Positions 4,012 through 22,944 of a stretch of 64,000 bases of DNA are shown here, piece by piece. Position 1 is the first letter of the stretch; the number at the start of each line of letters is the position of its first letter. Under the pieces are notes generated by a model. The model saw only the letters and a list, made by a program, of their open reading frames with translations. It was not told the DNA's origin and did no database searches. The translations under genes were made by a program, and so were the position numbers. The DNA comes from Chloroflexota bacterium (GTDB taxonomy: Bacteria; Chloroflexota; UBA11872; VXOZ01), in contig OZ219802.1 in the NCBI GenBank assembly GCA_964291655.2, positions 800,001-864,000 of the forward strand, in the 5' to 3' direction.

Positions 4012-5766
4012 TTAGCGTCCCATGGCGTAGGGGACCATCGTCCGCGGAGATGCTCCACCTTCAATCAGACCGGAATCCGGATCGAAACGAACACCCGTAA
4101 CCTGACCGTGCCCCCAGTCTCCTCCTACGACGATCTCATGGCCACGGGCCTCGAGCGCGGCGCGTGTTTCTGCTGAAATGCGACCCTCCACCACCACTCT
4201 CTTGGGATAGGCGGCGCGGGGGTAGAATGAACTGGGGAAGTGCATGGTATGAAAAGACGGGGCCTCAATCGCTTCCTGAAGATTCATGCCAAAATCCACC
4301 ACGTTGAGGAAGAACTGTAGCGTCCATTGGTCCTGCATGTCGCCGCCGGGCGTGCCGAAGACCATATGCGGCCTGCCGTCTTTCATTGCCAGCGAAGGTG
4401 TCAAGGTCGTGCGGGGACGCTTCCCCGGCATGAGGGCATTGGGATGGTCCGGATCGAGAGAGAACATCTGCCCACGTGTGCCCAACGGGAAGCCGAGACC
4501 CTCAACAACCGGCGAGGACGGCAACCAACCTCCGCTCGGCGTGGCGGAAAACATGTTGCCTTCCGCATCGATGACGTCCAAATGGGTCGTATCAAAGGCG
4601 TAGAACGCCGGGTCGCCGGGCAGCGTTTCCAAGGTCTGCGGCGGCAGGCCGCCGGGCCGTAGTTCGGCGGAAGCCGCCGCCAGATCAATCAACGTGCTGC
4701 GCTCCGCGGCGTACTCTTTGCTCAAGAGCCGGTCAAACGGCACGTGCACAAATGCCGGATCGCCGTAGTACGTCTCGCGGTCTGCGAAGGCCAGCTTCGC
4801 CGCCTCGACCACGGTGTGGATATACTCAGGTGAATTGTGACCCAAGCCCGCCAGGTCGAATTGCTCCAGCAGTGTGAGTTGTTGTAAGAAGACGGGTCCT
4901 TGGCACCAGGGACCGCATTTATAGACGTCTATGCCTCGATAGTTGACCGTGACAGGAGGCTCAACCTTGGTGCGAAAAGCAGCGAAATCCTCTGCGGTAA
5001 TCAGACCCCGGTGCGTTTCGCCACTGGCGTCAAGAATCTCCGTGTTCGCTACAAAGTCAGCAGCCTTTGCGGCCACGTCGCCGCGATAGAAATAGTCGAG
5101 GGCAGCGCGCAACCCCGCTTCCCGCCCGCGATGCTGCTCTCGCATCTCCACGTCTATGGCTGCTTGAAAGGTGGCCGCCCAGGTCGGCTGCCGCCACAGC
5201 GAGCCAACTTCCGGTACCGCGCCGTTATCCAGAAATGCCTCGGCCGACGTCGGCCAGCGGGTGCGAAATTTCTCCGCGTGGGTTGCAAGTGAGCGGCTCA
5301 ATTCCGCATACATGGGAAAGCCGTCGCGGGCCATGTCCACCACCGGGCCCAGCGTCTCCTTGAGGCTCAGTCTCCCATACCGCAGCAGCGACGTGACCCA
5401 CGCGCCAAACGCGCCCGGCACCGTGGCCGGCAAGAGACCGTCACCTGGAATGAGGTCGATGTTTTGCGCGCGAAACCACTCGATGGTTGCTCGCTTTGGC
5501 GCCATGCCCTGGCCGTTAATGGCAACAGTCTGCGGGCCGTCAGCGGCGGCGCGGTGAATGAGAATTGGGCTCTCGCCGCCGATGCCGTTCGAATGGGGCT
5601 TCAGAAGATTGAGCGCAAAGCCGGCTGCCACACCGGCATCTATGGCATTCCCGCCGTTCTCCAGTACCCGCATTCCAATTGCCGTCGCCAGGTAATGCCC
5701 CGTCGTCACCACGCCGAACGTACCCGTGATGACGGGGCGTGTCGTAAACTCCGCCATTTCGCTCAT
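4012..5766 (-). CDS. ggt: Gamma-glutamyltransferase family protein
   Basis: GGNAIDAGVA, TVPG, KLAFADR, DTTHLDVID (nucleophilic Thr), PGKRPRTTLTP, GTPGGD. Confidence 0.92.
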   Translation of the reverse strand: MSEMAEFTTRPVITGTFGVVTTGHYLATAIGMRVLENGGNAIDAGVAAGFALNLLKPHSNGIGGESPILIHRAAADGPQTVAINGQGMAPKRATIEWFRAQNIDLIPGDGLLPATVPGAFGAWVTSLLRYGRLSLKETLGPVVDMARDGFPMYAELSRSLATHAEKFRTRWPTSAEAFLDNGAVPEVGSLWRQPTWAATFQAAIDVEMREQHRGREAGLRAALDYFYRGDVAAKAADFVANTEILDASGETHRGLITAEDFAAFRTKVEPPVTVNYRGIDVYKCGPWCQGPVFLQQLTLLEQFDLAGLGHNSPEYIHTVVEAAKLAFADRETYYGDPAFVHVPFDRLLSKEYAAERSTLIDLAAASAELRPGGLPPQTLETLPGDPAFYAFDTTHLDVIDAEGNMFSATPSGGWLPSSPVVEGLGFPLGTRGQMFSLDPDHPNALMPGKRPRTTLTPSLAMKDGRPHMVFGTPGGDMQDQWTLQFFLNVVDFGMNLQEAIEAPSFHTMHFPSSFYPRAAYPKRVVVEGRISAETRAALEARGHEIVVGGDWGHGQVTGVRFDPDSGLIEGGASPRTMVPYAMGR

Positions 5767-20162: not shown

Positions 20163-20323
20163 AGCCACCCACTGGCGTATCCGAGAGCGCAGATACGCAA
20201 ACTGCCAGACTGACTTTGGCAAAACCGTCCCAATTGTAGGCGCGGTTACAAAAAAACGTCTCTACTTTCGTTATACTGGGCATGGATAGGGGAGTAGTGC
20301 GTTGCGTGGTAAGGGCTTATCCT

Positions 20324-21079
20324 ATGCTTGTTGACGTTGGCATTGCATTTGGCGCCGGCATTCTCTCATTTTTATCGCCCTGTTTTCTCCCCCTGGTACC
20401 GGCATATCTTGTCTATCTCGGTGGCCGCCACGTCAACGCGGTCCGCCACGAAAAGTCTGCCCAACGGGCCGTCCTCATCAACGCGCTGGCCTTTATACTG
20501 GGCTTCGGCACCATCTTCGTCGCCCTCGGCATTGCTATCACGTTTGTTGGCCTTGCCTTTCAGCAAGGTCTTCCCACGATGCGGCTTGTCGGTGGCGCGC
20601 TTCTCGTCATCTTTGGGCTTAGCTTTCTGGGATTCCTGCGTATTCCGTGGCTCCAGCAGATTTTGCAACGGGAAGTCTCGCTCCGCAATACACCGCTGGG
20701 CCGCATAGACACGGAGAAAACCGGTCCGATCACATCTTTCCTGATCGGCCTGGTCTTTGGCACCGGCTGGACGCCGTGCGTGGGGCCGATTCTGGGCGCC
20801 ATTTTGCTCCAGGCATCCGGCGCTGACACGGTGGCCCGCGGCGGAATCTTGCTGGCAATCTACGCATTGGGAATGGGCATCCCGTTTCTCGCGATGGCCG
20901 CCGCCGTGGAGCGCGCTGCATCCCTCATGAACTGGCTCAAGTCCCACATGCTCGTAGTTGAGCGCACAAGCGGAGTCTTCTTGATCTTGATGGGAATTGC
21001 TGTGGCAACGAATTTCCTGGCGATGCTGTCTGGAGTTCTCGGCTTTTTCTCATTAGAAATCTTGGCATTTGAGCGTTAG
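20324..21079 (+). CDS. ccdA: CcdA-type transmembrane thiol-disulfide electron transporter
   Basis: SFLSPCFLPLVPAY and GWTPCVGPILGAIL (both redox Cys intact), ~6 TM helices; alternative start at 20282. Confidence 0.93.
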   Translation: MLVDVGIAFGAGILSFLSPCFLPLVPAYLVYLGGRHVNAVRHEKSAQRAVLINALAFILGFGTIFVALGIAITFVGLAFQQGLPTMRLVGGALLVIFGLSFLGFLRIPWLQQILQREVSLRNTPLGRIDTEKTGPITSFLIGLVFGTGWTPCVGPILGAILLQASGADTVARGGILLAIYALGMGIPFLAMAAAVERAASLMNWLKSHMLVVERTSGVFLILMGIAVATNFLAMLSGVLGFFSLEILAFER

Positions 21080-21318
21080 CATGAGTGATGGCGACAGGAA
21101 GATTGTTACACTCGATCCTTGGGGCTCGCCTTATGCTTCGAAGTGCGAGCACGGGTTGCGGCAAAGCATCCGATCCAACGCCGTCGCCGCAGCTCATGGC
21201 AGCGCCGAAAACGAAGGCCGTCTCGCGATGACGGCGAGTTGAAGCAGGCAGATTCCCAAGCATTTCGGTTTTTGCGGGGATAGTATTCGGGGATAGTACC
21301 AGCAAAGGGAGGAGACCT

Positions 21319-21984
21319 ATGCGACGACGTTCTGTATGCGCATTGCTGTTCAGCGGCGCGTCCGTAGCCGCGCTCGCGGCGTGCGGCGGCGGCTCAACGC
21401 TGCTCGATACGCAAGAGGAGCCCGCGCCGGCGAAGGAAGAGGCCAAGGCCGAGCCGACCGCTGCTCCGAAGGAAGCTGAGGCAACGGCTGAGCCCGAAGC
21501 GAAGGCGGAGCCTGAGCCGACGGCAGCGCCCGAACTCGACCTGCCCAACCTTGGCAAGGCGCCGGAGATTACGCTCACGCAATGGCTCAATTCCGATGCC
21601 ATTACGTTGTCCAGCTTGGAAGGCAAGGCCTCTGCCTTGATTGTCTTCTGGACCTACACCTGACCGGTGTGCCGCGGCGAAATCCCCAGTTGGGTGGATA
21701 TCCAGAACACGCTCGTTGACGACAGTTTCAAGCTCATCAGCATCCACTTCCCGGCCTTGGGCGCATCCACGGACGTGAGCGTCATTGCCGAGAAGTCCGC
21801 GGAGCTCAATGTCAATTTCCCGGTCGCAATCGATAATGACCTGTCAGCCTGGAACGACTACGGCAACAATGCCTGGCCGGTTGCCTACGCAGTCGATAAG
21901 CAAGGTGACATTCGCTTCAAGCAGGTTGGCGCCGGTATCGACTCAATCCTTGAAGTGATTGAAAAGATGAAGGCTGCGGGCTAG
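21319..21984 (+). CDS. Putative selenoprotein: lipoprotein TlpA/DipZ-like redoxin with UxxC active site (TGA 21661-21663 read as Sec), 221 aa
   Basis: Track ORFs 21319-21663 and 21667-21984 are in frame, joined by TGA-CCG. Read-through gives FWTYT-U-PVC-RGEIP, ISIHFP, FPVAIDND, YGNNAWP, VDKQGDIRF. MRRRS...LAAC signal; GGGAGG RBS. Confidence 0.85.
21679..21702 (+). promoter_or_regulatory. Candidate bacterial SECIS hairpin
   Basis: GAAAUCCCC-AGUUG-GG-U-GGAUAUC: AUCC/GGAU plus CC/GG stem, bulged U, apical GU 25 nt after UGA; conserved in the paralogue. Confidence 0.6.
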
Positions 21985-22020
21985 CGTACCTGCTGATTCT
22001 TAGACATCGGTCGAAACAAG

Positions 22021-22065
22021 CAAGCCGTCTGCGGTGTGCTCATCACACCGCAGACGGCTTGTTTT
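22021..22065. terminator. Intrinsic (probably bidirectional) terminator between the convergent redoxin genes
   Basis: Perfect 18-bp stem caagccgtctgcggtgtg/cacaccgcagacggcttg, 5-nt loop, followed by TTTT. Confidence 0.8.
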
Positions 22066-22174: not shown

Positions 22175-22214
22175 ATACAGTACCCAGTGTTCATGTGAAC
22201 ACTGGGTACTGTAT
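22175..22214. repeat. Perfect palindrome with 19-bp arms (terminator or protein-binding site)
   Basis: atacagtacccagtgttca-tg-tgaacactgggtactgtat. Confidence 0.7.
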
Positions 22215-22272: not shown

Positions 22273-22944
22273 TTAGCCCAACTCCTTGAGTTGCTTCACG
22301 GCATCAACCACCAGTTCGAAGTTGCCGCCGCCGAACTTTGCAAAGCGTATATTGCCCTGCCGATCAATGCCGTAGAATGCCGGCCACGTGCGGGTGCCAT
22401 AGGCGTTCCAAAGCACCTCATCGTTGTCGACAACCACCGGATAGTTGACGCCGAGGGCGTCGGCCCGCTCCTTAATGCCGCTGATGTCTCGGGAAGAACC
22501 GGCGTGCGGAAAGTGCACGGAGATCAGCTTGAAGCGGTCATCGTGGTAGGTATTGAAGAGATCCACCAAACTGGGGATTTCGCTGCGGCAGACCGGTCAG
22601 GTGTACGTCCAAAACACAATCATGGCAGCGGCCTTGCCTTCCAAACTTGCCATGGTGATGGGCTCGGAGTTGAACCAGCCGGTGAGCGTAATTTCCGGCG
22701 CCTTGCCAAGATTGGGCATATCGAGCGTGGGTGCTGCGGTGGCGGCCGGCTGTGCCTCCGTTTTGCTATCAGCCTTTGCTTCTTCTTGCGCCGGAGCGGC
22801 TGTTGGCTGCGCCGCGGAATCTTGCGCAGAGCTTGCGGGTGCCTCGTCCTCGGTATCCAGCAATGAAGACCCACCGCCACATGCTGCGAGCGCGGCTGCG
22901 GACGTGCTGCTTAACAGTAGAGAGCAAACTGAACGTCGTCGCAT
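22273..22944 (-). CDS. Putative selenoprotein paralogue: lipoprotein TlpA/DipZ-like redoxin with UxxC (TGA at 22599-22597), 223 aa
   Basis: Track ORFs 22597-23031 and 22273-22569 are in frame. Read-through gives FWTYT-U-PVC-RSEIP, ISVHFP, YPVVVDND, YGTRTWP, IDRQGNIRF. MRRRS...LAAC start at 22944. Confidence 0.85.
22558..22581 (-). promoter_or_regulatory. Candidate bacterial SECIS hairpin (second copy)
   Basis: GAAAUCCCCA-GUU-UGG-U-GGAUCUC at identical spacing from UGA. Confidence 0.6.

Follow-up and report, generated by a model that had tools for sequence, protein, structure and literature searches.

We found that two convergent genes in the window, by which we mean the whole 64,000-nucleotide stretch of DNA analysed here, are very probably real selenoprotein genes, whose UGA codons would be decoded through SelB and a small hairpin and whose products would be exported, lipid-anchored reductases of the TlpA/DipZ type, fed with electrons by CcdA.

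Copy 1 occupies 21319..21984 on the plus strand and comprises 221 residues and a TAG stop (21982-21984); its ATG at 21319 is preceded, at a distance of 4 nt, by the Shine-Dalgarno-like GGGAGGAG (21307..21314, plus strand, read directly). The signal peptide with its lipobox, MRRRSVCALLFSGASVAALAAC (21319..21384, plus strand), has Cys22 as the predicted lipidation site and leads into a linker rich in Ala, Glu, Pro and Lys that extends to about residue 72, after which comes a thioredoxin-fold domain (residues 73-221; 21535..21981, plus strand), supported by AlphaFold2, Foldseek, and phmmer. The TGA is read directly at 21661..21663 as codon 115, where the U-P-V-C redox motif (21661-21672) begins, in the local sequence TTC TGG ACC TAC ACC TGA CCG GTG TGC, with the final TGC at 21670-21672. 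With the TGA read as U, the motif is F-W-T-Y-T-U-P-V-C, and the 106 further sense codons that an earlier note had reported after the TGA are all present in the frame. The same note held that selenocysteine (Sec) replaces the N-terminal Cys of a CxxC motif; this agrees with the Cys homologues, which align Cys with the TGA (FWTYGCINC vs. FWTYGUINC), and with a conserved, covarying SECIS-type hairpin and complete Sec machinery in the genome. The identification of the copy 1 TGA as a selenocysteine codon is, at the level of sequence comparison, supported.

Copy 2, a paralogous gene on the minus strand (22273..22944), is convergent to copy 1 and encodes 223 residues followed by a TAA stop, with AAGGTGAGGA situated 6 nt 5' of its ATG and the Sec116 UGA read directly at 22597..22599 (minus strand). 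Copies 1 and 2 share both the lipobox and the W-T-Y-T-U-P-V-C motif. The identity of copy 2 to copy 1 is 58-59%; compared over the whole gene the copies are 84% identical, and the ~45 nt after the TGA are almost identical. Upstream of copy 1, separated by 240 nt, a separate gene on the plus strand (20282..21079) encodes a CcdA-like membrane electron transporter (Pfam DsbD_TM, 69.1 bits, E 4.4e-19) that retains both conserved Cys residues (FLSPC... and GWTPC...). A ccdA homologue adjoins the Sec gene or genes in 16 of 16 genus loci, in alignments that start at query residues 1-15. The initial 8-14 codons of the ccdA frame (window 20282-20323) find no match at 13 of the other 15 genus loci, and translation may really begin ~14 codons further in, at the Met of codon 15. 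The remaining neighbours of the gene pair are housekeeping or sugar-use genes.

TGA serves as an ordinary terminator elsewhere in the window, where dnaE and the fucosidase gene both stop at a TGA, as do nine of the 36 open frames of at least 300 codons, in keeping with the earlier view that global recoding is unlikely. No in-frame TGA was seen among nine other Pfam-supported window genes examined. The stretch is contained wholly or partly in 23 public runs from 11 studies, three of the runs being labelled sponge metagenome, and the contig of one independent public run, which spans 21526-22019, differs from the window at 19 positions, none of them at 21661-21663; at contig level, therefore, the TGA is kept and is not replaced by TGC or TGT. 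Among the differences listed for copy 2, and for the runs X5 and X20, none falls at the TGA. That the TGA arose through an error of sequencing or assembly, or marks a recent pseudogene, is so improbable as to be nearly negligible: the same TGA recurs in both window genes, in a third paralogue, in 16 other genus genomes and in other families, the independent contig preserves it, and dN/dS is low on either side of it.

The conservation of the TGA was followed in a genus-level homologue search of 61 genomes including that of the window, 38 of which matched at a cut-off of E ≤ 1e-10. Every one of the 17 genus genomes was matched, with three homologues each and two in G014 (69% complete). The TGA occurs at the same codon in all 47 in-genus matches that cover the motif, at identities to copy 1 of 43% to 100%; the copy 2 gene of genome G004 has two TGAs within its open frame. 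Three in-genus rows are without a TGA, namely a 43-residue N-terminal fragment in G014 and matches in G010 and G011; the latter two, 29-30% identical, look like a fourth relative, of Cys type. A motif scan of 33 loci recovered 47 genes, all with F-W-T-Y-[TGS]-U-x-x-C, which divide into 13 copy 1-like genes, 17 copy 2-like genes, and 17 genes of a third, U-I-N-C type. In the window's genome, this third Sec paralogue lies outside the window (contig C2, 1286635-1287207; locus L080, 5636-6208) and encodes 190 residues with a lipobox LSAC and the motif FWTYGUINC. It has a GGUCU SECIS loop, is situated downstream of leuS without an adjoining ccdA, and is found in all 17 genus genomes.

A wider search covered 401 genomes of the phylum, of which 144 matched at E ≤ 1e-15, a tally that includes the unpublished G303, G216, G191, G264, and G095, which enter into no other statement made here. 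Of 23 out-of-genus rows marked as having one TGA, 20 were fetched (omitting G191, G264, and the second G257 copy), and U stands at the same position in all 20 of these TGA-bearing homologues from other Chloroflexota families, as UINC or UYNC. Thirteen loci from other families of the class were compared, with open frames of ~400-1140 codons, and all 13 align Cys with U, as in FWTYGCINC; the database homologues and M. tuberculosis DipZ do likewise. In the loci L103-L115, from other Chloroflexota families, long open frames of 428-1133 codons (stop to stop) contain the same domain, here with a Cys-Sec dipeptide in the motif FWTF-C-U-INC and with a 7-bp stem capped by an AGUU tetraloop as the SECIS. 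In a midpoint-rooted tree of 69 distinct domain sequences, with identical ones collapsed and the out-of-genus rows chosen by their TGA, the genus forms one clade (support 100/99), within which copies 1 and 2 group together (100/100) as neighbours of the U-I-N-C type, which indicates that the Sec gene was duplicated along with its SECIS.

The reading frame after the TGA is under purifying selection, with Nei-Gojobori dN/dS values of 0.157 (78 pairs), 0.145 (136 pairs), and 0.127 (136 pairs) in the three groups of paralogues, so the downstream half is translated; relaxed selection after the TGA, which would have spoken against the Sec reading put forward in the earlier note, is not what the sequences record. 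The corresponding values in the 40 codons upstream are 0.038, 0.066, and 0.145. These values bear on a further alternative, in which the UGA would be decoded without selenium, either yielding a 114-residue lipoprotein stub or being read through with Cys or Trp supplied by a near-cognate tRNA. The shortness of the hairpin would be in its favour, but a stub would break off partway through the thioredoxin fold, yet the 106 downstream codons are under purifying selection; TGA is retained in 67 of 67 examined genes even though a single base change would give Cys; and the hairpin covaries in a genome that keeps the full Sec machinery, including a Sec-containing SelD. We consider decoding without selenium very unlikely.

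The SECIS hairpin of copy 1 (21682..21699, plus strand) has the form AUCC-CC, an AGUUG loop, and GG-(U bulge)-GGAU according to RNAalifold, and may have a weaker extension to 21679-21702, while that of copy 2 (22561..22578, minus strand) reads AUCCCC AGUUU GG U GGAU. The copy 1 hairpin spans nt +22 to +39 from the U of the UGA and begins 18 nt after the UGA. In E. coli fdhF, the hairpin begins 11 nt after the UGA, a shorter spacing than the 18 nt here. In the 84-nt alignment of the 47 genus genes, the hairpin at +22 to +39 was the sole consensus structure found by RNAalifold, with the consensus (A/G)UCC-CC, a 5-nt loop, GG, a bulged U, and GGA(U/C). The six pairs are intact in all 47 sequences; 38 of these close the stem with A-U and nine with G-C, and no one-sided changes occur. 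In the same 47 genes, the Ile, Pro, Ser/Gly, Leu, and Val codons within the hairpin have invariant third positions, and the synonymous sites outside it vary. In the phylum comparison of 40 distinct sequences, 97% of the cells pair, compared with 32-63% in slid controls, and double changes are seen in four of the five pairs, amounting to 46 double-change cells vs. 13.4 in shuffles, a number reached by none of 500 shuffles. The stem variants across the phylum are CCCC/GGGG, CCGC/GCGG, CCCG/CGGG, and CCUU/AAGG. A G-U in the loop, starting at +28 to +30, is present in 66 of 67 genes (47 genus and 20 out-of-genus), the exception being the out-of-genus homologue L102, whose hairpin loop is without G-U. 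The element is a stem-loop soon after the UGA with G-U in the apical loop, as expected of a SECIS, and the locus provides a clean, covariation-supported SECIS for Chloroflexota.

The window hairpins are small, with 6 bp and a bulged U, and have folding energies of -6.9 and -7.7 kcal/mol. Single-sequence minimum free energy folds of the 60-91 nt after each TGA were no stabler than those of shuffles (z -0.34 to +0.90) and gave unlike structures for copies 1 and 2. A larger copy 2 stem (nt +6 to +40) was considered and rejected, with several of its pairs broken in copy 1. A loose version of the hairpin motif has five matches genome-wide, three of which are the Sec paralogues, with the TGA 22 nt upstream, and two of which have no nearby TGA; the hairpins of selD and of a further selenoprotein candidate with the motif WASWUGC are different, with GUA and GGU loops. 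The motif is thus specific to this family and is not a general SECIS of the genome.

The genome of the window (3.47 Mb in two contigs, C1 and C2, 97.55% complete) contains a tRNA-Sec (67.1 bits, cut-off 47) with the anticodon tca according to ARAGORN, together with selB (356.8 bits), selA (562.1 bits), and selD (383.3 bits), all above curated cut-offs; selA, selB, selC, and selD, the genes by which a genome qualifies for selenoprotein decoding, are all present. The selD gene (C2, 2457313-2458242, minus strand) contains one in-frame TGA in the context SCAGUAGK, and, since selD also has an in-frame TGA, at least five genes of this genome decode Sec. The WASWUGC gene (C1, 187872-188699; locus L116, 573-1400; TGA at C1 187974) is a candidate thioredoxin-fold selenoprotein with a C-terminal TPR-like region; it scores 161.8 bits against the NCBIfam model NF041054, 'ResA-like WAxxUGC' (cut-off 300), and its hairpin, GUUGCCA-GGU-UGGCAAC, begins 14 nt after the UGA.

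The earlier assignment of copy 1 to the thioredoxin fold (Redoxin/AhpC-TSA) is confirmed by Pfam, with both window genes scoring above the gathering cut-offs for AhpC-TSA (42.7 bits for copy 1 and 55.2 bits for copy 2, cut-off 26) and for Redoxin (38.5 and 39.8 bits, cut-off 26.6); the third paralogue also exceeds the gathering cut-offs of both families. An AlphaFold2 model of copy 1 residues 73-221, built from a 37-sequence alignment, has a mean pLDDT of 95.8. In the modelled domain, a strand at 33-39 is followed by U43 and a helix at 44-59, so that U directly precedes helix 1 and the C/UxxC motif is located at the N-terminus of helix 1 of a thioredoxin fold, as both AlphaFold2 and Foldseek indicate. 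The best Foldseek matches are the C-terminal domains of M. tuberculosis DipZ (TM 0.88, rmsd 1.8), followed by SOQ1, ResA, Etrx2 (4hqz, 2yp6; a pneumococcal lipoprotein thioredoxin), and CcmG; the TM scores to DipZ, ResA, CcmG, and Etrx2 range from 0.78 to 0.89. No NCBIfam model reached its cut-off for the Sec paralogues. The best was ResA (NF002854), with 44-51 bits against a cut-off of 170 (44 and 50 bits for copies 1 and 2), which places the pair outside the System II ResA family as defined by that model. Because all NCBIfam models remain below cut-off, the function is to be read from the fold and the neighbourhood only.

The N-termini of the genus proteins have the pattern of lipoproteins. 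All 47 genus homologues show M-[RQK]-[RS]-R (two begin L-R-R) followed by L-[AS]-A-C, which conforms to the lipobox L-[AS]-[AG]-C; both are pattern matches made without a signal-peptide predictor. The Arg-rich start is mostly M-[RQ]-R-R, and, judged from this sequence, the paired signal arginines could direct export through the Tat system, of which TatC is present in the genome.

In comparison with known systems, UxxC selenoproteins of the Prx-like thiol:disulfide oxidoreductase kind (PF00578, UxxC/UxxU) are already catalogued in tables of PMC9312934 and PMC13188914, as are Redoxin family proteins (PF08534) and UGC-containing TlpA proteins (PMC9312934, PMC13188914, PMC1088965, PMC2398784). The same Prx-like family appears as 'Prx-like 1' in the ocean metagenome surveys, whose abundance figures are in PMC1088965 and PMC2398784. 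By description, the window genes match this family in having the same Pfam domains and a UxxC motif in which Sec takes the position of the first Cys, and copies 1 and 2 fall under its definition of PF00578 plus UxxC, as given in PMC9312934; they differ in being lipoproteins beside ccdA, with three Sec paralogues per genome. Because UxxC selenoproteins with the AhpC-TSA/Redoxin fold are already catalogued, the gene pair is an unannotated addition to a known selenoprotein class and leaves the current understanding of selenoproteins unchanged. The UGC-containing TlpA family (NF041054, WAxxUGC_long) resembles the pair in its TlpA/ResA-like fold and active-site Sec, and a relative is found elsewhere in the genome; however, copies 1 and 2 have the motif WTYTUPVC instead of WAxxUGC, and the Sec paralogues score 27-33 bits against its cut-off of 300 (33.4 and 27.4 bits for copies 1 and 2), outside the family. 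Among the literature matches listed, there were no Sec-containing lipoproteins linked to DipZ or CcdA and no selenoproteins of sponge-associated Chloroflexota.

A search of a database of 5.8 billion proteins returned 10 matches, the best full-length ones being 28-34% identical, with one 121-residue fragment at 58%; no full-length match in this search exceeded 34% identity. Gene callers split such genes at the TGA, which leaves a conserved redox module out of the annotations of this uncultured Chloroflexota lineage.

M. tuberculosis DipZ (PDB 2hyx, 5cyy), in which a CcdA-like membrane domain, a TlpA-like thioredoxin domain, and a C-terminal domain are fused, is the closest solved relative both by sequence (phmmer vs. 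2hyx, E 1.5e-20) and by fold. Its motif FWAYSCINC aligns with FWTYTUPVC, so that Sec115 lies opposite the first Cys of C-I-N-C, and in DipZ, as probably also in the gene pair, CcdA and thioredoxin modules are functionally linked. Unlike DipZ, which uses Cys, the window genes have Sec, a separate ccdA gene, and a thioredoxin module that is predicted to be lipid-anchored, and the DipZ C-terminal domain is absent; copy 1 ends after the thioredoxin domain, and the three modules are not joined in one polypeptide. The motifs UPVC, UINC, and CINC form a natural Sec/Cys series within a single fold, which offers a route to the contribution of selenium in an extracytoplasmic reductase. In S. pneumoniae, the surface lipoprotein thioredoxins Etrx1 and Etrx2 are reported to act with CcdA1, CcdA2, and MsrAB2 (PMC3914529). 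The likeness lies in a lipoprotein thioredoxin-fold protein paired with CcdA, Etrx2 itself being among the structural matches, and the differences are that Etrx uses Cys, not Sec, and that the gene pair here has no adjoining msr gene. By analogy, we take the gene set to be a split, Sec-using counterpart of DipZ that resembles the pneumococcal pair of CcdA and an Etrx lipoprotein.

We infer the insertion of selenium, the export route, the lipidation, the electron flow from CcdA, and the substrates in the following scheme. SelB, carrying Sec-tRNA(Sec), would bind the small hairpin that begins 18 nt after the UGA and presents G-U in its apical loop, so that selenocysteine would be inserted at codon 115 of copy 1 or codon 116 of copy 2. 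Each product would then be exported and lipid-anchored at Cys22, with an acidic, Ala/Pro-rich linker of ~50 residues tethering the TlpA/DipZ-type thioredoxin domain. The U-P-V-C redox centre would form a selenenylsulfide on oxidation, and the adjoining CcdA would most likely relay electrons to it from cytoplasmic thioredoxin, allowing the lipoprotein to reduce disulfides or sulfenic acids of proteins outside the cytoplasmic membrane. We infer that an extracytoplasmic reductase fed by CcdA is the likely function.

The proteins might instead be real selenoproteins with another task, namely an apocytochrome c reductase of the CcmG/ResA type, a thiol peroxidase, or an oxidase/isomerase, and not general CcdA-fed reductases; we regard this as unlikely, though less so than decoding without selenium. 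ResA is the best NCBIfam match, CcmG and ResA are among the structural matches, and the genome contains CcmF and CcmC, all of which would suit a role in cytochrome c maturation. Against this, the ResA scores are far below the model's cut-off and ResB was not found in the 97.55%-complete genome, which also encodes one Sco-like protein and three Cys-type membrane-anchored TlpA-like proteins. The latter three could serve the Ccm system, and with them in place it is not obvious that cytochrome c maturation would call for the Sec lipoproteins; a dedicated role in that process is possible but not favoured. A peroxidase role would accord with the top Pfam family, AhpC-TSA, which also includes peroxiredoxins, but the UxxC is located at the N-terminus of helix 1 as in thioredoxins, in contrast with the TxxU of peroxiredoxins in the tables of PMC9312934 and PMC13188914. 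As for an oxidase/isomerase or other roles, the adjacency of ccdA points to a reductive pathway. A CcdA-fed reductase remains our preferred reading. A second ccdA/DsbD_TM gene (63 bits) is present in the genome at C1, 410714-411358, with a long opposite-strand open frame downstream.

A wider reading is offered tentatively, since as a whole we judge it somewhat more apt to fail than to hold. In it, CcdA and the three Sec lipoprotein thioredoxins would constitute a selenium-dependent extracytoplasmic reducing pathway that arose by duplication of a Sec gene with its SECIS. The pathway would belong to a large, mostly unannotated clade of DipZ-like selenoproteins with U-I-N-C, distributed across the Chloroflexota both as short lipoproteins and within open frames of 428-1133 codons (stop to stop), all with a common SECIS type whose AGUU-like loop lies at +28 to +30. 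The RR signal peptides would make these proteins Tat-exported selenoproteins without a metal cofactor.

Several minor features were observed in and around these loci. Between the convergent genes, an 18-bp G+C-rich hairpin with T-runs on either side (22021..22061), located by consensus scan only, is probably a bidirectional terminator. A perfect 19-bp inverted repeat at window 22175-22214 (ATACAGTACCCAGTGTTCA, TG, and the reverse complement) lies 59 nt past the copy 2 stop and is without a subsequent T-run. Rfam, applied to the window at its gathering thresholds, matched nothing, and ARAGORN found no tRNAs in the window. Upstream of the third paralogue, at ~4200-5600 of locus L080, there is repeated DNA whose translations repeat strings like PFDKLRANG and LRQAQGERNG in several frames, and this looks like an intergenic repeat family.
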